Shown here in pieces: positions 14,261 to 57,788 of a stretch of DNA of 64,000 nt. The first letter of the stretch is position 1. Every line of letters begins with the position of its first letter. The DNA is taken from assembly GCA_964479445.1 (NCBI GenBank), contig CAYZMH010000001.1, forward strand, positions 11,805 to 75,804, written 5' to 3'. The translations under genes and the position numbers were made by a program. Origin of the DNA: an uncultured Bacteroidaceae bacterium (GTDB taxonomy: Bacteria; Bacteroidota; Bacteroidia; Bacteroidales; GCA-2748055). The notes under the pieces are model-generated. The model did not search any database and was not told the DNA's origin. It was given only the letters and a program-made list of their open reading frames with translations.

Positions 14261-15568
14261 ATGATGACTATGATATCCAGAATCAGGAGATTTCTCAGGG
14301 AAGAGGTATGGTCGGCTGATTTAAAGACCAAGTCAGGAAGAAAGGGCTTTGTTATACGTCAGATTCGCATTTTGACTTATGCATTCAAGGGTTTCTTTGA
14401 AGATAGGGCAGCACTCAGGGCATCGTCACTCACCTATTTCACCATGCTTTCCATTGTTCCCATTTTTGCAATGGGGTTTGGAATTGCAAAAGGGTTTGGA
14501 TTCGAAGACAGACTCCATGGATTCATTAGCAATAATTTCCAGGGGCAGGATCAGATCATTGCCTGGATTACACAAATGGTAGATGATCTGTTGCAAAAAA
14601 CAAGGGGTGGTCTCGTGGCCGGGATCGGGTTTATCATCCTTTTCTGGTCTGTGATCCAGGTCTTAAATAATATTGAGCTCTCTTTTAACGACATCTGGCA
14701 GGTAAAGAAACCCAGGAGTCCGGTTCGTAAATTTTCAGATTACCTGGCCATCATGATTGTCAGTCCGTTTGCCATTGCCATATCGGGAAGCTTCATGGTA
14801 AAAATTCAATCGGCCGCAAGCGATTTTGAATTGTTACAACCCGTCCTGGTATTATTGATCAAAGCAGTCCCCTATGTTGCTATCTGGCTCTTGTTTACGG
14901 TGGTTTATATGGTTATGCCTAATACAAAAGTAAAATTCAAATATGCGATCATCGCCGGGATATTTGCCGGAACGCTTTCACTGATCGTACAGTGGGGATA
15001 TTTTGAATTCCAGATTGGTGTGACTCGCTTTAATACACTGTACGGTAGTTTTGCTGCCATACCACTTTTCCTGGTGTGGTTGCAGATCACCTGGCTGATT
15101 GTGCTTATGGGAGCGGAGGTCTCATTTGCCTATCAGAATATTGAAAACTATGAATATGAGGATGAGGCATTGAAATTAAGCCATAACAACAAACGTATTT
15201 TAACCCTGCTGATCACTCACTATGTGGTTAGAAATTTCGAGGAGGGAGGAGAAGCAAAAAGCGCTGCTATGCTGAGCCATGAATTGGGAATACCCATGCG
15301 CCTGCTGAGCGAGCTTGTCTTTGACCTGATGGAATGCGGTGTAATTGCAGAGCTGGCTTCCGATAATCCCAAGGAACGCTATTATCAGCCAGCCATGGAT
15401 ATTAATAAACTCTCGGTAGATGAGCTTTATACGCGTCTTGAACAGATGGGAGGGGATCATATGATCGTTACGGAATCGGAAAAACTTGATAAAATTACAC
15501 GTATTCACGAACACCTTCTTCACGCCATGAGGGAATCACCATCCAATATTCTGATAAAAGATATCTGA
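14261..15568 (+). CDS. YihY/BrkB family membrane protein with C-terminal soluble extension
   Basis: It has the motif RASSLTYFTMLSIVPIFAM, six TM helices and LMGAEVSFAYQN, followed by a soluble tail of about 130 aa. Confidence 0.8.
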   Translation: MMTMISRIRRFLREEVWSADLKTKSGRKGFVIRQIRILTYAFKGFFEDRAALRASSLTYFTMLSIVPIFAMGFGIAKGFGFEDRLHGFISNNFQGQDQIIAWITQMVDDLLQKTRGGLVAGIGFIILFWSVIQVLNNIELSFNDIWQVKKPRSPVRKFSDYLAIMIVSPFAIAISGSFMVKIQSAASDFELLQPVLVLLIKAVPYVAIWLLFTVVYMVMPNTKVKFKYAIIAGIFAGTLSLIVQWGYFEFQIGVTRFNTLYGSFAAIPLFLVWLQITWLIVLMGAEVSFAYQNIENYEYEDEALKLSHNNKRILTLLITHYVVRNFEEGGEAKSAAMLSHELGIPMRLLSELVFDLMECGVIAELASDNPKERYYQPAMDINKLSVDELYTRLEQMGGDHMIVTESEKLDKITRIHEHLLHAMRESPSNILIKDI

Positions 15569-15632
15569 GAGGGTGATATTTCTGTTGAATTATCGGATTA
15601 TTGAAATCATTAATGATTATTTAATAGTGCTG

Positions 15633-15640
15633 TATATTTG
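15633..15640 (+). promoter_or_regulatory. candidate Bacteroidota -7 promoter element TATATTTG for the his leader/operon
   Basis: It matches TAnnTTTG and lies about 45 nt upstream of the leader-peptide ATG. Confidence 0.4.
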
Positions 15641-15685
15641 ATTATTCAGAATTATTACTTATAATTGCACTGCTAAAATTTGAAA

Positions 15686-15748
15686 ATGAACAGGCTTTTC
15701 ACACATAACGGTCATCATCTCCTGCACCATCACGGTGTTGTCAGGTAA
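15686..15748 (+). CDS. his operon leader peptide (20 aa, MNRLFTHNGHHLLHHHGVVR)
   Basis: 6 of 20 codons are His, and 5 of those fall within 7 consecutive codons (HHLLHHH). The ORF sits between a -7 motif and an intrinsic terminator immediately upstream of hisG. Confidence 0.7.
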   Translation: MNRLFTHNGHHLLHHHGVVR

Positions 15749-15782
15749 TCGTGTGGAAAGTTGTAAACGCTTATAATTCTTG

Positions 15783-15813
15783 AAAGGTTTGCAGTTTCTG
15801 CAGACCTTTTTTT
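15783..15813 (+). terminator. intrinsic terminator (attenuator) preceding hisG
   Basis: A 9-bp stem, GGTTTGCAG / CTGCAGACC with one G-U pair and a 3-nt loop, is flanked by AAA and followed by T7 (15807..15813). It ends 17 nt before the hisG ATG. Confidence 0.7.
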
Positions 15814-15829
15814 GTTAAAACACGGAAGT

Positions 15830-16687
15830 ATGGAAAAACTTAGAATCGCTCTCCAGAAGTCGGGTCGTTTAAGCGAAAAATCTATTAACCTGCTTAAAGA
15901 ATCTGGTATCGCCATGACCAATGGTACAAGGAAGCTCATTGCACCATCCGGTTCATACCCGTTGGAAGCCTTATACCTCAGGGATGATGATATACCTGAA
16001 TATGTGCAAGATGGGGTTGCCGATATCGGTATTGTGGGAGAAAATATTGTAGCTGAAAAAGGAGCGGATGTAAAAATTGAGGAACGGCTGGGCTTTTCAA
16101 AGTGTCGTTTATCTCTGGCCATTCCAAGGCAGGTCTCGTATGATGGTCCCGAGTATTTCATGGGCAGGAAGATAGCCACATCGTATCCGGGAATTCTGGC
16201 AAAATACCTGGAGCAGCAGGGTATCCGTGCTGAGATTCATGAAATCAGTGGTTCAGTTGAGATCGCTCCGGGGATCGGATTGGCTGATTCTATTTTCGAC
16301 ATTGTCAGCTCCGGGAGCACCCTGATTAGTAACGGGCTGAAGGAGGTGGAAACCGTAATGCACTCCGAAGCGGTATTGATAGCCGGGCATCAACTGGATG
16401 AAACCAGGCAGGAATTGCTCAATGATCTACGGTTCAGAATAAAAAGTGTTCTTGCTGCATCCAATAACAAATATATCCTGTTAAACGCACCCAATGATAA
16501 ATTGGATGAGATTATTGCTCAGATTCCCGGCATGAAGAGTCCAACGGTGATGCCTCTGGCGGAGACCGGCTGGAGCTCCGTGCATTCGGTACTCAGTGAA
16601 AAACAGTTCTGGGAAGTGATCGATCGCCTGCGGGAACTGGGTGCCCAGGGAATCCTGGTTATTCCTATTGAGAAAATGATTGTATGA
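15830..16687 (+). CDS. hisG: ATP phosphoribosyltransferase, long form
   Basis: The N-terminus is MEKLRIALQKSGRL and a C-terminal regulatory domain is present. This is the first gene of the his operon. I moved the start to the first ATG at 15830. Confidence 0.9.
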   Translation: MEKLRIALQKSGRLSEKSINLLKESGIAMTNGTRKLIAPSGSYPLEALYLRDDDIPEYVQDGVADIGIVGENIVAEKGADVKIEERLGFSKCRLSLAIPRQVSYDGPEYFMGRKIATSYPGILAKYLEQQGIRAEIHEISGSVEIAPGIGLADSIFDIVSSGSTLISNGLKEVETVMHSEAVLIAGHQLDETRQELLNDLRFRIKSVLAASNNKYILLNAPNDKLDEIIAQIPGMKSPTVMPLAETGWSSVHSVLSEKQFWEVIDRLRELGAQGILVIPIEKMIV

Positions 16688-16702
16688 TGTAAAAAACAGA
16701 TA

Positions 16703-17992
16703 ATGAACGTAATAAAAAATCCCTCAGAAGATCAATGGCCCGATATTTTGAAACGTCCCACCAATGATGTCAGCGATCTTTTTGATTCGGTTCAAAAGAT
16801 TCTGGATGAAGTAAAATCCGGGGGTGATCAGGCTGTGAAATACTATTCCGGGAAATTTGATAAAGTAGCACCCCAAGAGTTACAATGCAGTAAAGTAGAG
16901 CTTACTGCAGCAAAATACAATGTGGACGATTCTCTGAAGAAGGCCATTGATGAGGCCAGGGGCAATATTGAAAAATTTCACGCCCGCCAGTTATGCGAAA
17001 CCGAGGTAATTGAAACCACTCCCGGTGTAAGGTGCTGGCAGAAAACGGTTCCCATCGAGAAAGTGGGACTCTATATTCCCGGGGGTACAGCCCCGCTTCT
17101 ATCTACGGTTTTGATGCTCGGAATACCGGCTAAACTGGCAGGATGCAGTGAGGTTATTCTATGCACACCTCCGGATGAAAAGGGAAATATAGATCCATCC
17201 ATTCTTTACCTGGCCGACCTGCTGGATATTGATAAGGTATTCAGGGTGGGTGGTGTGCAGGCAATTGCTGCCATGGCTTATGGCACGGAAAGCATTCCCG
17301 GTGTCAATAAAATATTCGGACCCGGAAATCAGTATGTAACGGCTGCCAAGCAGCTGGTAAGCCAGGATAGTGTAGCTATTGATATGCCGGCAGGCCCCTC
17401 TGAATTGGCCGTGATAGCTGATAAAACGGCAATTCCTGAATTTATAGCATCTGACTTGCTTTCCCAGGCTGAACATGGTATCGATAGCCAGGTCATCCTT
17501 ATTACAGATTCCGAAGCAATCATCGAAAAGGTGCAGATAGCGATTGAACAGCAGCTTACTGCAATACCACGCAAAGACATTGCTGTCCAGGCGTTGTTGA
17601 ACAGCAAAATTGTACTTATGGAAGATCCCGGTAAGATGATCAAGATGATGAATGCATATGCCCCGGAGCACCTGATAATAGCCTGTGAGAATTACCAGGA
17701 AATGGCAGAAAAGGTAGTGAATGCCGGATCTGTCTTCCTGGGAAATTATACCCCGGAAAGTGCCGGAGATTATGCCTCAGGAACCAACCACACTTTGCCT
17801 ACGAACGGGTGGGCTCATGCTTACAGCGGCCTCAATATGGATAGTTTTGTGAAAAAGATTACCTTTCAGGAAATCAGTAAGTATGGTTTGTTTAATATAA
17901 GTCAGGCTGTTACCACGATGGCAGCCGCGGAAGCCCTGGATGCGCATAAAAATGCCGTAGAGATACGAATGAAAAACGGATCAGAAGAGTAA
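16703..17992 (+). CDS. hisD: histidinol dehydrogenase
   Basis: Motifs IDMPAGPSE, SQAEHG and GDYASGTNHTLPT are present. Confidence 0.95.
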   Translation: MNVIKNPSEDQWPDILKRPTNDVSDLFDSVQKILDEVKSGGDQAVKYYSGKFDKVAPQELQCSKVELTAAKYNVDDSLKKAIDEARGNIEKFHARQLCETEVIETTPGVRCWQKTVPIEKVGLYIPGGTAPLLSTVLMLGIPAKLAGCSEVILCTPPDEKGNIDPSILYLADLLDIDKVFRVGGVQAIAAMAYGTESIPGVNKIFGPGNQYVTAAKQLVSQDSVAIDMPAGPSELAVIADKTAIPEFIASDLLSQAEHGIDSQVILITDSEAIIEKVQIAIEQQLTAIPRKDIAVQALLNSKIVLMEDPGKMIKMMNAYAPEHLIIACENYQEMAEKVVNAGSVFLGNYTPESAGDYASGTNHTLPTNGWAHAYSGLNMDSFVKKITFQEISKYGLFNISQAVTTMAAAEALDAHKNAVEIRMKNGSEE

Positions 17993-19041
17993 TGATAGCT
18001 AAGATTGATCATCTTGTGAGAGAGAACATTCGTTCCCTTGTGCCTTACTCATCAGCCCGAAATGAGTACTCGGGAAGTGATGCGGTGTTGATGGATGCCA
18101 ACGAAAATCCGTTTAACCATCCCTATAACCGCTATCCGGATCCTATGCAGATGGCTTTGAAAGAGCGGATATCTGAATTAAAGGAGATTCCTGGCGAGAT
18201 GATATTCCTGGGAAACGGTTCCGATGAAGCAATAGACAACTTGTACCGAGTATTTTGCGAACCTGGGAAGGATCATGTGTTATCGATAGAACCCACTTAC
18301 GGGATGTACCAGGTGTGTGCAGATATCAATAACATTGCAGTCAGGAAAATACCTCTTAATCCGGACTATAGTCTGGATATACGTTCAATACTGGAAGCCG
18401 TCAATGATCATACAAAATTGATCTTTATTTGTTCCCCCAACAATCCTACTTCAAATTCCTTTCCTGCGGAGGATATTTTGAAAGTTGTGAAGGAATCAGA
18501 TGCCCTGGTAGTTCTGGATGAGGCCTATATTGATTTTTCTGCCTCGGAAAGCATGCTCAGAAAGGTGATGGAGTTCCCCAACCTGGTGATCTTACAGACC
18601 TTCTCAAAAGCATGGGGTATGGCAGGTATACGCCTGGGAATGGCCATAGCCCAACCCGAAGTGATGACCTATTTGAACCGGGTTAAATACCCTTATAATG
18701 TGAACCGGTTAACCCTGGAGCATGCATTGGAAGCACTTAACAAGCCGGAAAGGAAGGATCGCTGGGTGGAAATGATCCTGAATGAAAGGAACAAACTGGC
18801 TGAGCGCCTGGGATCCTATCCATATGTGGAAGAGGTCTATCCCTCCGATGCGAATTTTCTACTGGTGCGCGTGCAAAATCCAACGGCTTTATATAACTAT
18901 TTGAAATCAAATGGAATGATTGTTAGAGATAGATCACGGGTTCCTCTCTGTGAGGGGGCTTTGCGAATTACAGTGGGGACTGAACAAGAGAATCAGCAAT
19001 TAATAGGCCTGTTGGATCGTTTTCCACTGCAATCCCAATGA
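17992..19041 (+). CDS. hisC: histidinol-phosphate aminotransferase
   Basis: It has the features of a class-II aminotransferase, including SKAWGMAGIRLG (the PLP lysine). It lies within the his operon. Confidence 0.9.
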   Translation: MIAKIDHLVRENIRSLVPYSSARNEYSGSDAVLMDANENPFNHPYNRYPDPMQMALKERISELKEIPGEMIFLGNGSDEAIDNLYRVFCEPGKDHVLSIEPTYGMYQVCADINNIAVRKIPLNPDYSLDIRSILEAVNDHTKLIFICSPNNPTSNSFPAEDILKVVKESDALVVLDEAYIDFSASESMLRKVMEFPNLVILQTFSKAWGMAGIRLGMAIAQPEVMTYLNRVKYPYNVNRLTLEHALEALNKPERKDRWVEMILNERNKLAERLGSYPYVEEVYPSDANFLLVRVQNPTALYNYLKSNGMIVRDRSRVPLCEGALRITVGTEQENQQLIGLLDRFPLQSQ

Positions 19042-19083
19042 GAATCTATTTATAAACAGGAATATAACGATAGTTCAATACCC

Positions 19084-20208
19084 ATGAAACGAGTGTTATT
19101 CATTGATAGGGACGGTACGCTGATTGTTGAGCCAGAGGGAGATTACCAGGTGGATTCCCTGGAGAAACTGGAGTTCATGCCCGGGGTTTTCAGGAATCTT
19201 TACAGGTTAACAAAGACAACTCCCTTTGAATTGGTAATGGTCTCTAACCAGGATGGCATGGGGACCGGGTCATATCCTGAAGATGCATTCCTTGCCCCGC
19301 ACAATAAAGTCCTTAAGGCATTTGAGAACGAAGGAGTGATATTTGATGCAGTACATATTGATTCGTCACTTCCCGGGGATCATTCTCCCAATCGCAAACC
19401 AGGTACCGGTATGCTTACCGGGTATTTCGATGACATGTATGATTTGGAACGGTCCTATGTGATCGGTGACCGTCTTACCGATATAGAGCTTGCTAAAAAT
19501 TTGGGTGCAAAAGGTATATGGCTGACTTCTCCCGGTCGAACGGATGAGTTAGTTAAGCACGGACTGAGTTCGTATTGTGAGTTGATCACCGAATCATGGG
19601 ATGAGATATACCGTTTCCTTCGTGCCTCTATAAGGACAGGGAAGGTGGTTCGTAAGACCCGGGAAACCGACGTGGAGGTCACAGTTGCTTTGGATGGAAG
19701 CGGCAGGTCCGGGGTTGAAACCGGACTGGGATTCCTGGATCACATGCTGGAACAAATTGCACGACACGGACAGGTGGATCTTGTTGTACAAACCCGGGGA
19801 GATCTGCATGTGGATGAACATCATACGGTGGAAGATACGGCCCTTGCCCTGGGTGAAGCGTTCTATAAAGCGTTGGGTGATAAAAGGGGAATAAGCCGGT
19901 ATGGATTCACACTGCCTATGGATGAAAGTCTGGCTCAGGTTGCGTTGGATTTTAGTGGCAGACCATGGTTGGTGTGGAATGCAACGTTTAACAGGGAACG
20001 CATAGGAGATGTGCCTACAGAATTATTTTTTCATTTTTTTAAGTCTTTTTCGGATGCTGCACGCTGTAATCTCAATATACAAGTAGAAGGGGAAAATGAG
20101 CATCATAAGATCGAAGCTATTTTCAAGGCATTTGCAAAGGCTATCCATCAGGCAGTGGCTGCCGGAGACGACAATGAACAGCTCCCTACCACCAAGGGAA
20201 TGTTGTGA
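19084..20208 (+). CDS. hisB: bifunctional histidinol-phosphatase / imidazoleglycerol-phosphate dehydratase
   Basis: The N-terminal HAD domain has FIDRDGTLI. The C-terminal IGPD domain has DHMLEQIARHG, DEHHTVED and HHKIEAIFKAFA. Confidence 0.95.
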   Translation: MKRVLFIDRDGTLIVEPEGDYQVDSLEKLEFMPGVFRNLYRLTKTTPFELVMVSNQDGMGTGSYPEDAFLAPHNKVLKAFENEGVIFDAVHIDSSLPGDHSPNRKPGTGMLTGYFDDMYDLERSYVIGDRLTDIELAKNLGAKGIWLTSPGRTDELVKHGLSSYCELITESWDEIYRFLRASIRTGKVVRKTRETDVEVTVALDGSGRSGVETGLGFLDHMLEQIARHGQVDLVVQTRGDLHVDEHHTVEDTALALGEAFYKALGDKRGISRYGFTLPMDESLAQVALDFSGRPWLVWNATFNRERIGDVPTELFFHFFKSFSDAARCNLNIQVEGENEHHKIEAIFKAFAKAIHQAVAAGDDNEQLPTTKGML

Positions 20209-20267
20209 ATGGACCGTTGTTGCCTGAAAGAGATGCCAAAAGATCTTTGTAAGGAAAAAAGCAAACT

Positions 20268-20849
20268 ATGAAAGTTGCAATCATTAAATACAATGCAGGG
20301 AACATTCGTTCGGTGGATTTCGCACTTCAACGCCTTGGAATCCGCGCGGCAGTAACGGCAGATCCGGACTATATTAAAAATGCCGATAAGGTTATCTTTC
20401 CGGGTGTAGGGGAAGCCGGAACCACTATGAAATACCTGCGGGATCATAAATTGGATTCTCTTCTTCGTGAACTAACCCAGCCGGTACTCGGAATCTGCCT
20501 GGGGCAGCAGCTGATGTGCCGTGCATCGGAGGAAGGAAATACCGGGTGTATTGGGATTTACAATGAAACCGTTCGCCGGTTTCCGGAGGGAAAAAAAATA
20601 CCTCATATGGGCTGGAACAGTCTGAAAGAAAGAAAAGGTGATCTTTTCAAAAATATGGAAGAAGAACCATATGTATATTTTGTGCACTCCTATTATGTGC
20701 CACTTTGTGAAGATACAGCTGCAGTGTGTGACTATGGAATATCCTTTAGTGCAGCGATGCAGCGCGAAAATTATTATGCTACCCAGTTCCATCCTGAAAA
20801 AAGCGGGGATATAGGACATTATATTCTGGAACGATTTTTAAAATTATGA
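20268..20849 (+). CDS. hisH: imidazole glycerol phosphate synthase, glutaminase subunit
   Basis: GATase-1 motifs are present: GICLGQQ (catalytic Cys) and QFHPEKS. Confidence 0.95.
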   Translation: MKVAIIKYNAGNIRSVDFALQRLGIRAAVTADPDYIKNADKVIFPGVGEAGTTMKYLRDHKLDSLLRELTQPVLGICLGQQLMCRASEEGNTGCIGIYNETVRRFPEGKKIPHMGWNSLKERKGDLFKNMEEEPYVYFVHSYYVPLCEDTAAVCDYGISFSAAMQRENYYATQFHPEKSGDIGHYILERFLKL

Positions 20850-21565
20850 TAGAAATTATACCGGCTATTGACCTGATCAATGGTAAATGTGTCAGACTCA
20901 GCAGGGGTGATTATACGCAAAAGACCGAATACCGGGAAAATCCGGTGGAGATGGCTCAGCGGTTCGAAGATCATGGGATGAAGCGATTGCACCTGGTTGA
21001 TTTGGATGGTGCGAAAGCGGGAAAAGTAATGAATTACAGAGTTCTTGAAAGAATCGCCGGTCATACGCGGCTTGTGATTGACGCAGGTGGTGGTTTATAT
21101 TCGGATGAAGACTTGCGGATAGTTTTTGAGAACGGAGCCTCTATGGCTACAGGAGGAAGTCTGGCAGTAAAAAACCCCGATCTGTTTAAGAAATGGCTGG
21201 AAAAATACGGATCCCAACGGATAATCCTTGGGAGTGATTTTTTGGATGGTAACATTGTGATCTCCGGCTGGCAGGAGCAAACCGGGTACAGTCTCTATGA
21301 ATTCCTGCAGGACTGGATAGCAGAGGGGATTAAACAGACCATCTGCACGGATGTCTCCAAAGATGGTCTTTTGCAGGGATCTGCTGTAACAATCTATCGT
21401 GCTATCCGAGAACGATTTCCTGATCTTTACATGGTAGCCAGCGGAGGGATTGCTTCCATGGAGGACATCCATGAACTTGAAAGGTGGGGAATCCCTGCTG
21501 TTATTATCGGGAAAGCCATTTATGAAGGAAAGATAAGGTTGAACGAATTGGCAAAATTTCTTTAA
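20846..21565 (+). CDS. hisA: 1-(5-phosphoribosyl)-5-[(5-phosphoribosylamino)methylideneamino]imidazole-4-carboxamide isomerase
   Basis: The N-terminus is IIPAIDLINGKCVRL, a HisA/HisF-type TIM barrel, and the gene is in the expected operon position. Confidence 0.9.
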   Translation: MIEIIPAIDLINGKCVRLSRGDYTQKTEYRENPVEMAQRFEDHGMKRLHLVDLDGAKAGKVMNYRVLERIAGHTRLVIDAGGGLYSDEDLRIVFENGASMATGGSLAVKNPDLFKKWLEKYGSQRIILGSDFLDGNIVISGWQEQTGYSLYEFLQDWIAEGIKQTICTDVSKDGLLQGSAVTIYRAIRERFPDLYMVASGGIASMEDIHELERWGIPAVIIGKAIYEGKIRLNELAKFL

Positions 21566-21574
21566 AGACAACCT

Positions 21575-22327
21575 ATGCTGGCGAAAAGAATTATACCATG
21601 CCTCGATATCCGTGATGGTAAAACGGTTAAAGGAATCAATTTTGAAGATATCCGGGAAGTGGGTGACCCCGTAGAATTGGGTGCAAAGTATGCAAGAGAA
21701 GGTGCTGATGAACTGGTTTACCTGGATATTACTGCATCCCATGAAAAGAGAAAATTGTTTACTGACCTGGTCCGCCGGATAGCAGAAAATCTGAATATTC
21801 CATTCTCGGTAGGAGGCGGTATCAATGAGAGGAGGGATGCAGAGGTTTTATTGGAGGCCGGGGCCGATAAATTATCGGTTAACTCGTCTGCTGTAAGAAC
21901 CCCGGAATTAGTGGATGAAATAGCGCAAAATTTCGGGAATCAATTTGTTATTGTTGCCATTGATGCCAGGTTGGAGCAGGGCCGGTGGTTGGTATACATA
22001 AACGGTGGGCGTATACCCACCGGAAAAGAACTATTCTCCTGGGCAAAAGAGGTGGAAAACAGGGGAGCCGGAGAGATTCTTTTCACCTCCATGAACCATG
22101 ATGGAACCAGGAACGGATTTGCATGTGAAGCGCTCTCGGAATTGTCGCAGCATGTTTCGATCCCTGTTATTGCTTCGGGAGGAGCAGGGGAGAGTCGGCA
22201 TTTTCACGAGGTTTTTACCAGGGGTAAAGCCGATGCAGCGCTGGCTGCAAGCATATTTCACTACAATGAGATCCCCATTCCTGCATTAAAAAAGTACCTA
22301 AAAGAAAACCAAATAATAGTACGATAG
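21575..22327 (+). CDS. hisF: imidazole glycerol phosphate synthase, cyclase subunit
   Basis: Motifs [28 protein letters not shown] and SVGGGI are present. Confidence 0.95.
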
Positions 22328-22330
22328 CTC

Positions 22331-22924
22331 ATGATGGATTTTAATAAGATGAATGGATTATTACCGGCCATCATTCAGGATTTTTCAACAGGCAAAGTGC
22401 TTATGCTGGGTTTTATGAATGAAGAGGCATACCGGAAAACCCTTGAAGACCGGAGAGTTACTTTTTACAGCCGAACCAGGGAGAGACTATGGACCAAGGG
22501 TGAAGAGAGTGGTAACTATTTGGAAGTAAAAGAGATATTGGAGGATTGCGATCAGGATACACTCCTGGTAAAAGTCAATCCGGCAGGTCCGGTCTGCCAT
22601 ACAGGCAGTGATACCTGCTTTGATGAAGTGAACAGGGAATCTCTGAAATTTCTCGCTGATTTGCAACAGCTAATTAGCCGCCGGAGAGAGGAGATGCCTG
22701 AAGGGAGTTATACTACAAAACTTTTTGAAAAAGGGATTAATAAAATCGCCCAGAAATTGGGCGAAGAGGCTGTGGAATTGGTTATTGAATCCAAAGATGA
22801 AAATGATACGCTCTTCCTCAATGAGGCTGCTGACCTGGTATACCATTTTCTAGTATTGCTTTCGGCAAAAGGCTACGGAATTCATGATGTAGTAAAGGTC
22901 CTGGAAGAGAGGCACCGCAAATAG
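22331..22924 (+). CDS. hisI: bifunctional phosphoribosyl-AMP cyclohydrolase / phosphoribosyl-ATP diphosphatase
   Basis: The N-terminal HisI part has LLPAIIQD and CHTGSDTCF. The C-terminal HisE part has KIAQKLGEEAVELVIE. Confidence 0.9.
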   Translation: MMDFNKMNGLLPAIIQDFSTGKVLMLGFMNEEAYRKTLEDRRVTFYSRTRERLWTKGEESGNYLEVKEILEDCDQDTLLVKVNPAGPVCHTGSDTCFDEVNRESLKFLADLQQLISRRREEMPEGSYTTKLFEKGINKIAQKLGEEAVELVIESKDENDTLFLNEAADLVYHFLVLLSAKGYGIHDVVKVLEERHRK

Positions 22925-57712: not shown

Positions 57713-57788
57713 TGGTGATTCAGCTGAGGCTCGAACTCAGGACCCCCTCCTTAAAAGGGAGGTGCTCTACCAACTGAGCTACTGAATC
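57713..57788 (-). tRNA. tRNA-Lys (anticodon UUU), CCA encoded
   Basis: The hand-folded cloverleaf is: acceptor GATTCAG/CTGAATC, D arm GCTC-AGTTGGTA-GAGC, anticodon arm CCTCC-CTTTTAA-GGAGG, variable loop GGGTC, T arm CTGAG-TTCGAGC-CTCAG, discriminator A, then CCA. Total 76 nt. Confidence 0.95.

Follow-up and report, generated by a model that had tools for sequence, protein, structure and literature searches.

The segment between positions 15638 and 15829 of the window (the whole stretch of DNA analysed here, 64,000 nt from an uncultured Bacteroidaceae bacterium) very probably holds the promoter and leader of the histidine biosynthesis (his) operon, acting as a ribosome-mediated attenuator that senses charged tRNA-His. 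A his attenuator with hisL-type logic had been proposed for this place in an earlier reading of the letters alone (the sequence-only reading), and the proposal is supported by a His-codon open reading frame (ORF), an intrinsic terminator and an antiterminator that recur before hisG in other Bacteroidota. Observed in silico were the sequence elements with their conservation and energies and, for both the antiterminator and the helix that competes with it, complementarity and covariation.

Loci containing hisG were sampled from 80 Bacteroidota species genomes, 80 metagenome contigs and 12 contigs of the closest relatives; labels such as L001 denote the fetched hisG loci of relatives. The nearest HisG proteins belong to uncultured Bacteroidales and are 75-79% identical. 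The metagenome scan gave no relative above 72% HisG identity, and the nearer ones came from exact-protein look-ups. Alignment A2 contains the 11 distinct close-relative leaders. Alignment A3 is an unfitted MAFFT alignment of 22 leaders, namely 11 close ones and 11 more distant ones with the same terminator type. Phylum-wide pairing tests were run on 113 non-redundant loci. Coordinates of the features are collected in Table 1.

Table 1. Features of the his leader and operon in the window
Feature	Position	Strand	Remarks
TTG, putative -33 element of a sigma-A promoter of Bacteroidota type	15638..15640	+	3' end of TATATTTG
-7 box TATAATTG	15660..15667	+	near-invariant block in A2, conserved CA next; relatives have TAATATTG
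Predicted transcription start	15672..15675	+	by analogy with the mapped starts of Flavobacterium psychrophilum and Bacteroides thetaiotaomicron
Leader ORF MNRLFTHNGHHLLHHHGVVR	15686..15748	+	ATG 15686, TAA 15746-48, 20 codons, 6 His
Segment 1, anti-antiterminator strand	15690..15704	+	ORF codons 2-7, ends at the first base of His7
Segment 2, antiterminator 5' strand	15751..15768	+	conserved post-stop box GTGTGGAAAGTTGTAAAC; relatives GGGTAGAATATTGTAAAC
Segment 3, antiterminator 3' strand	15787..15801	+	top of terminator 5' arm GTTTGCAG, loop TTT, first 4 nt of 3' arm CTGC
Intrinsic terminator	15782..15813	+	stem 15782-94/15798-15810, loop TTT, U-run 15807-13; -16.9 kcal/mol
hisG	15830..16687	+	head of the complete hisGDCBHAFIE operon
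Regulated his operon	15830..22924	+	hisG, hisD, hisC, hisB (bifunctional), hisH, hisA, hisF, hisIE; each with an NCBIfam equivalog match above cut-off

Leader peptide and terminator

The leader ORF is present where the sequence-only reading had placed it, with five of the six His codons within codons 10-16. The His codons are numbers 7, 10, 11, 14, 15 and 16 (15704-06, 15713-18 and 15725-33). His7, His10, His14-16 and the start codon are kept in the close relatives; other residues vary. A qualifying His mini-ORF (ATG start, 8-45 codons, at least 4 His in 8 codons, within 300 nt before hisG) was found in 126 of 170 Bacteroidota hisG upstream regions. The same search of controls gave 0 of 170 reverse complements and 2 of 3400 shuffles, so that a chance origin of the ORF is excluded. 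Histidine is the only residue so enriched in mini-ORFs upstream of hisG. The reading frame was examined in loci with at least three CAY triplets in a row by counting short ATG-to-stop ORFs that span them. The His frame was open in 113 of 123 loci and the other two frames in 7 and 2, which indicates that the CAY repeats are under selection as codons. Leaders occur in Bacteroides, Phocaeicola, Marinilabiliales, Prolixibacteraceae, Cytophagales, Flavobacteriales and Saprospiraceae. Their lengths range from 11 to 43 aa among the relatives, and the N- and C-terminal residues and the register drift.

The terminator stem GGTTTGCAG/CTGCAGACC was likewise found as described (15786-94/15798-15806), followed by seven T at 15807-13 and by the hisG ATG at 15830. 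A terminator scan gave a single site, a stem of 13 pairs with a 3-nt loop at 15782-15810. The RNA from 15680 to 15820 (141 nt) folds to -39.1 kcal/mol (z = -3.6; 0 of 200 shuffles as good). When leaders using alternative start codons are counted as well the set comprises 134 His leaders, and a hairpin with a U-run lies between leader and hisG in 119 of these loci. The His-run mini-ORF and the terminator both recur upstream of hisG across Bacteroidota, as the sequence-only reading would require. The terminator is 90% paired and near-invariant in the 22 relatives of A3, and in A2 it forms the conserved block AGGTTTGCAG-ATT-CTGCARRCCTTTTTT.

The terminator stems before hisG are alike across orders (L001-L160) and fall into three recurring types: AGGCTTACC...GGTAAGCCTTTTT, AGGTTTGCAG...CTGCARACCTTTTT and, in Flavobacteriales, AACCCGTTTGA-GTAAA-TCAAACGGGTTT. 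As judged from these sequences, the likeness hints at common descent over repeated invention.

Antiterminator and anti-antiterminator

The terminator is the only structure that RNAalifold finds in common in the 11-sequence alignment, and the alternative pairings were therefore tested explicitly. Segment 2, the box that follows the stop codon, pairs alternatively with segment 1 or with 15787-15801. In the antiterminator, 15753-59 and 15761-68 pair with 15787-15801. The outer part of this duplex joins GUGGAAA (15753-59) to UUUCUGC (15795-15801, the loop and the first four bases of the 3' arm), and the inner part joins UUGUAAAC (15761-68) to GUUUGCAG (15787-94). The post-stop block reads GGGTAGAATATTGTAAACA in A2 and GTGTGGAAAGTTGTAAACG (15751-69) in the window. 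The extended duplex has an energy of -14.4 to -15.7 kcal/mol against -16.9 kcal/mol for the terminator, and is competitive with it. If the lower 3' arm is unavailable the extended antiterminator is the minimum free energy (MFE) fold, at -14.4 kcal/mol. With segment 2 free it stays the MFE fold until the transcript end reaches 15806. At that length the terminator state has an advantage of about 6 kcal/mol once the helix between segments 1 and 2 (1:2 helix) has formed; with segment 1 masked, it and the antiterminator are on a par. The 1:2 helix pairs 15690-93 and 15695-15704 with 15751-64. It is present in the MFE fold and amounts to -12.7 kcal/mol alone; the leader from the ATG to the box reaches -21.2 kcal/mol with small inner hairpins included. 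The geometry is compatible with control by the position of the ribosome: a stall at His7 or His10-11 would cover segment 1, and the start of segment 2 is 3 nt past the stop codon.

The arms of the two other pairings named in the sequence-only reading are present, CCATCACG at 15727-34 and CGTGTGG at 15750-56 (pairing i), and GTAAACGCTT at 15763-72 and AAGGTTTGC at 15784-92 (pairing ii). These and the terminator had been called mutually exclusive. This holds for pairing (ii) and the terminator, but not for pairings (i) and (ii), which share no nucleotide. Pairing (ii) had been taken as the antiterminator; it is only the inner part of the extended duplex and is weak alone (-5.6 to -6.9 kcal/mol). 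Pairing (i) can form, as a bulged hairpin of about -9 kcal/mol when 15727 onward is free, but it has no conserved counterpart in the relatives. It was rejected as the main anti-antiterminator, being non-conserved and without overlap with pairing (ii), and is kept as a local competitor.

Among the 11 close relatives 97% of the antiterminator is paired, and the lone compensatory change there is a U-to-A in the window's box matched by an A-to-U in the loop. The loop variants UUU, AUU, AUA, AUG, GCAC, UUAC and CAU, and the changed stem top of L084, are each matched by the box. In A3, 82.9% of the antiterminator cells are paired; 0 of 500 column shuffles were as high, and slid controls gave 32-49%. 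Three pairs, in 10 cells, carry changes on both sides (2 of 500 shuffles), and the unpaired cells lie mostly in four or five rows misaligned by MAFFT. Across the phylum, the segment after the His codons was compared with the terminator apex of its own locus; mean z was -2.18 against dinucleotide shuffles, and 58% of the 113 loci had p<0.05. Own antiterminator partners gave -15.5 kcal/mol and swapped partners -11.5 kcal/mol, a result that none of 5000 permutations matched. This swap test may be inflated by shared base composition, for which the dinucleotide-shuffle test controls. The mean antiterminator energy in these loci is -14.8 kcal/mol, compared with -15.8 kcal/mol for the terminators.

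The position of the antiterminator 5' strand differs between lineages. When it was limited to the stretch from the stop codon to the terminator, no signal was obtained outside the window's clade (mean z = -0.6). With the search widened to start after the His cluster, most lineages place the strand inside the ORF end: it starts inside the 3' end of the ORF in 79% of the 113 loci, and in 98% within stop+12, where a terminating ribosome could reach it. From these comparisons the window's clade is a minority layout, with the antiterminator strand after the stop codon and an explicit anti-antiterminator. Folded singly, all 11 close relatives pair the post-stop box with the 5' region of the ORF, a region that differs among them in sequence and register. 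Within this clade own 1:2 partners gave -14.3 kcal/mol and swapped partners -11.0 kcal/mol (0 of 5000 permutations as good).

Proposed mechanism and alternative explanations

The mechanism is modelled on classical attenuation, and it is by inference that the ORF is taken to be translated, ribosomes to stall on its His codons, ribosome and polymerase to be suitably timed and histidine to be the signal; the place where transcription starts is likewise a prediction. Transcription would begin near 15673, and a ribosome would translate the 20-codon ORF with its six His codons. When histidine is plentiful the ribosome would reach the stop codon, with its footprint over the first bases of segment 2. 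After its release segment 1 would re-pair with segment 2, leaving segment 3 free, so that the terminator at 15782-15813 forms and transcription mostly stops in the U-run ahead of hisG. When histidine is scarce the ribosome would linger on His7, His10-11 and His14-16. At His7 or His10-11 it would cover segment 1, the 3' end of which overlaps His7. At His14-16 it would cover the 5' strand of hairpin (i) and sit between segments 1 and 2. In each of these states a free segment 2 would capture segment 3 as it emerges; no terminator would form, and transcription would read through into hisGDCBHAFIE.

Several points weigh against this scheme. In the full-length leader the terminator state is invariably the global energy minimum, so that the antiterminator would have to work kinetically. 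In the MFE series the takeover by the terminator shifts by just 2-4 nt of transcript between ribosome-masked and unmasked states. The inner antiterminator, pairing (ii), can coexist with the 1:2 helix. A ribosome stalled on His14-16 would leave both segments 1 and 2 exposed, and these might pair around it, the linkers totalling 18 nt. Phylum-wide the 1:2 helix gives a weak signal, with a mean z of -0.68 and 21% of loci at p<0.05. Only one compensatory pair occurs among the 11 close relatives, which are too conserved for much covariation, and the phylum-wide statistics ignore the relatedness of the loci.

In a two-state His attenuator only occlusion of the antiterminator strand by the ribosome would matter, and the 1:2 helix would be incidental or a pause or protective hairpin. 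Segment 2 would be blocked when a ribosome sits on the stop codon and would be free when the ribosome has stalled further upstream. The location of the antiterminator strand in most of the 113 leaders suits this arrangement, as do the weak phylum-wide 1:2 signal and the ability of the 10-bp 1:2 core to coexist with the inner antiterminator in the window. It is nevertheless considered unlikely for the window, where the strand of the clade lies wholly after the stop codon and a terminating ribosome would cover about 4 of the 15 paired bases. Moreover, the 1:2 pairing is predicted in all 11 clade relatives despite sequence change, own partners beat swapped ones as given above, and the helix sequesters 15751-64, exactly the outer antiterminator strand.

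Attenuation by a ribosome that senses charged tRNA-His is also to be set against explanations in which the ORF is not read for its His codons. One of them is a functional His-rich micropeptide, for example a metal-binding one, with the hairpin as a leaky terminator or RNA-stability element and no sensing of tRNA-His. The ORF is conserved as an ORF, and small proteins are common and often missed. The explanation is very improbable, as only the His codons and their spacing are conserved while termini, length and register drift freely; the ORF stands specifically in front of hisG across orders, and it is coupled to a terminator whose apex complements sequence beside the ORF end. Equally improbable is a reading of the CAU/CAC repeats as RNA, by a protein or by uncharged tRNA-His in the manner of a T-box, that would switch the same terminator. 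His T-boxes and RNA-binding attenuation proteins do regulate his genes in other phyla (PMC9413887). Apart from sub-threshold chance hits, neither a T-box nor another Rfam family matched the leader of the window at E<=10, none reached gathering score in 20 related loci, and the in-frame ATG and stop that bracket the His run in 113 of 123 loci (others 7 and 2) would be needless for a reader of RNA only. A chance ORF followed by the terminator of the upstream BrkB/YihY-family gene (14261-15568), without regulation, has next to no probability and is untenable given the comparative data: that gene runs in the same direction and stops 214 nt short of the hairpin, but a conserved promoter lies between it and the ORF, the same leader-terminator unit stands before hisG with other upstream neighbours, and such an ORF is expected about 2 times in 3400.

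Promoter and transcription start

The sequence-only reading had taken TATATTTG as the -7 motif. This octamer is indeed present at 15633-40 and is a perfect Bacteroidota -7 consensus, but it is rejected as the -7 box because a spacing of TTG, 19 nt and TAnnnTTG is conserved in the close relatives and puts the box at 15660-67. It was dropped for TATAATTG, which belongs to the motif pair kept across the close relatives; TATATTTG may act as a second promoter. TTG lies exactly 19 nt upstream of the TAnnnTTG box in 11 of 11 aligned close relatives (A2), and a sigma-70 style scan likewise couples 15638-43 with 15660-65. The conserved promoter block in A2 consists of TTG, 19 nt and then TAATATTGCA, of which the window version is TATAATTGCA (15660-69). 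The mapped hisG promoters of F. psychrophilum, TATATTTGCA (PMC9723704), and of B. thetaiotaomicron, TACTTTTG (PMC7366714 supplement), have the same form as the window -7 box, with the transcription start about 6 nt downstream; TAnnTTTG is the -7 consensus quoted in PMC9723704. The hisG 5' untranslated region (UTR) is 183 nt in F. psychrophilum (PMC9723704) and 188 nt in B. thetaiotaomicron (Ryan et al. 2020, PMC7366714). For the window a start near 15673 is predicted by analogy, which would give an A-rich 5' UTR of about 12 nt before the leader ATG and a hisG 5' UTR of about 157 nt.

Relation to known leaders

The scheme of the window has four segments (1:2, 2:3 and 3:4), in contrast to the six-segment A-F scheme of the textbook model of the Escherichia coli his attenuator. 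The hisL leader of E. coli and Salmonella (RF00514) resembles the window leader in having an ORF with a cluster of His codons directly upstream of hisG, and in its competing hairpins, one of them an intrinsic terminator, of which a stalled ribosome favours the antiterminator and read-through (PMC9413887). There is no detectable homology between the two. hisL has seven His in a row, whereas the window has six over codons 7-16. The window leader further differs from hisL in an antiterminator strand that comes after the stop codon and reaches across the terminator loop when paired, in a promoter of the Bacteroidota -33/-7 type, and in A-rich surroundings of the ATG that lack a Shine-Dalgarno sequence. 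The cmscan search with RF00514 (His_leader) that the sequence-only reading had suggested gave no match to 15500-15900 even at E<=10, and places the element outside the curated model. No Rfam family was found at gathering score in the 20 related loci, nor at the leader site in the whole-window scan, and T-box RF00230 was absent from the permissive Rfam scan of the leader.

At 15755-15810 the best sub-threshold match was cyano_het_sRNA, a cyanobacterial heterocyst small RNA (sRNA), with 26.7 bits against a gathering score of 35.7 (E = 0.003). Homology was rejected in this case, as the match aligns to the terminator hairpin and a small hairpin before it and is a resemblance between terminator-bearing RNAs.

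The sequence-only reading held a Bacteroidota version to be poorly described or undescribed. Poorly described it is, but not undescribed, as hisG of F. psychrophilum has an annotated His leader-peptide attenuator (PMC9723704). Its transcription start has been mapped, and a His-rich ORF of 19 aa and a structured 5' region of 129 nt with a terminator at its end were reported, together with read-through under specific conditions, induction of the operon in minimal nutrient media, and conservation of the element in other genera of Flavobacteriaceae (PMC9723704). This element (Guérin et al. 2021, ISME Commun, PMC9723704, supplementary information D9 and Table S7) and that of the window share the phylum, the operon, a terminator before hisG, a short A-rich 5' UTR and the lack of an Rfam match. 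The F. psychrophilum leader, of the MSLQFLHHHHFHICSQAKC type and given as MSLNQLHHHHFHICSQAKC in the table, is similar in size at 19 aa, but is not alignable with the window leader, and its terminator stem differs (AACCCGTTTGA.../...TCAAACGGGTT). Its antiterminator strand is predicted inside the 3' part of the ORF, unlike that of the window. The F. psychrophilum element has a mapped start and condition-dependent expression, whereas that of the window is known from sequence alone. Leaders of the F. psychrophilum type were found in the Flavobacteriales loci L024, L078, L119 and L150.

Another amino acid leader of the phylum is Bacteroid-trp (RF01692), defined by Weinberg et al. 2010 as a cis-regulatory leader in Bacteroidetes (PMC2864571) and called a tryptophan peptide leader upstream of trpE by Guérin et al. 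(PMC9723704). It differs from the window leader in its Trp codons and its operon, and RF01692 has no match to the window region. In Firmicutes, His leaders of hisZ and hisS were described by comparative genomics in the Bacillus cereus group, Peptostreptococcaceae and Erysipelotrichales (PMC2965389, PMC9413887). Like the window leader they lie outside Proteobacteria and combine a His-run mini-ORF with terminator and antiterminator hairpins, but they belong to another phylum and have no known sequence relation to it. They were reported to be lineage-restricted, whereas the Bacteroidota element occurs in about three quarters of the sampled hisG loci. For B. thetaiotaomicron, Ryan et al. 2020 make only the general remark that some long UTRs hold small ORFs resembling leader peptides (PMC7366714). 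Elements of this kind were already known, also from this phylum; the layout of the clade, the phylum-wide frequency and a model are not curated in the sources searchable here. Vitreschak et al. 2004 reportedly predicted candidate attenuators in Bacteroidetes/Chlorobi.

Family model and variant leaders

A covariance model of the Bacteroidales/Marinilabiliales hisG leader, R1, was built from the post-stop box, the spacer and the terminator, with the antiterminator as its structure. The window scores 74.5 bits by construction, since it belongs to the seed. Non-seed matches on the + strand just before hisG were found in L001 (60 bits), L012 (49 bits), L022 (45 bits) and L165 (66 bits), and weaker ones in about 15 further loci. 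The loci L001 (1336-1465) and L012 (1360-1487) match the antiterminator/terminator model strongly and have ORFs poor in His, namely MQIQSAYHHGGAHYQIV with 3 His in L001 and MKIIITHTWHSRYLIVYL with 2 His in L012. These two leaders may be decaying or differently tuned attenuators.

R1 also revealed two complete attenuators that stand in series before hisG in L006 (1150-1500) and L058 (830-1165). In L006 a promoter-like TATAATTGCA is followed by leader 1, MSLQFVHTVHYHHHHAGNGAVCKFL, with a terminator, by leader 2, MNQRQHHIHHHHSSENHTRRKIL, with a second terminator, and by hisG. Such tandem attenuators are analogous to tandem riboswitches. In L031, L055, L060 and L073 (Cytophagales-type) no recognisable hairpin with U-run was found before hisG despite His ORFs. 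The same applies to L014, L028, L036, L040, L066 and L067; L047 is a detection miss only. Many of the terminator-less His leaders end in ...HHFHHSS, with a conserved hairpin AUUCCUC-(stop)-GAGGAAU over the last codons and the stop. They may use a different read-out, translational or factor-dependent.

In L032, from a metagenome-assembled genome (MAG) labelled Chlorobiota, the leader is MNFGLIHYGHHRMILSPGRL, of the Prolixibacteraceae/Marinilabiliales type (compare L016, L042, L062 and L076). Mis-binning of the contig or transfer of the locus is the probable cause.

Whether one family embraces all of these leaders is a more doubtful matter than the attenuator of the window itself. The window may possibly be a member of a never-modelled, phylum-wide Bacteroidota His-attenuator family that includes lineage-specific layouts, tandems and the terminator-less leaders of Cytophagales.

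Implications

Attenuation by a leader peptide needs a ribosome close behind the RNA polymerase. In Bacteroidota, translation starts without Shine-Dalgarno pairing, and the sigma-A promoter is unusual. Conservation of the attenuator in this phylum argues that transcription-translation coupling operates there, and the family, if real, would be a test bed for it. Neither MAG annotations nor Rfam include the leader ORFs of 11-43 codons and their terminators. A model similar to R1 would let pipelines label the leaders and spare them calls as hypothetical proteins or sRNAs. A new curated RNA family would be warranted if the reading is true and if no systematic description exists beyond the reported 2004 prediction and one supplementary-table annotation. 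A compact histidine-responsive switch native to Bacteroides and relatives would be a possible part for gut-microbiome engineering. The textbook mechanism of attenuation is unchanged by the finding.

Operon and genomic neighbourhood

The upstream neighbour of the leader codes for a YihY/BrkB-family membrane protein, and the order BrkB, leader, hisG, hisD is common to the 11 distinct close relatives. The mechanical ORF list puts the start of hisG at a TTG at 15812, within the U-run region (15812-16687). The ATG at 15830 is the likely start, since 285-aa homologues align from there. The Rfam scan of the 64-kb window at gathering score gave no riboswitch or other curated leader. Among RNA genes, only a tRNA-Lys (UUU) was detected in the window, at 57713-57788 on the - strand.

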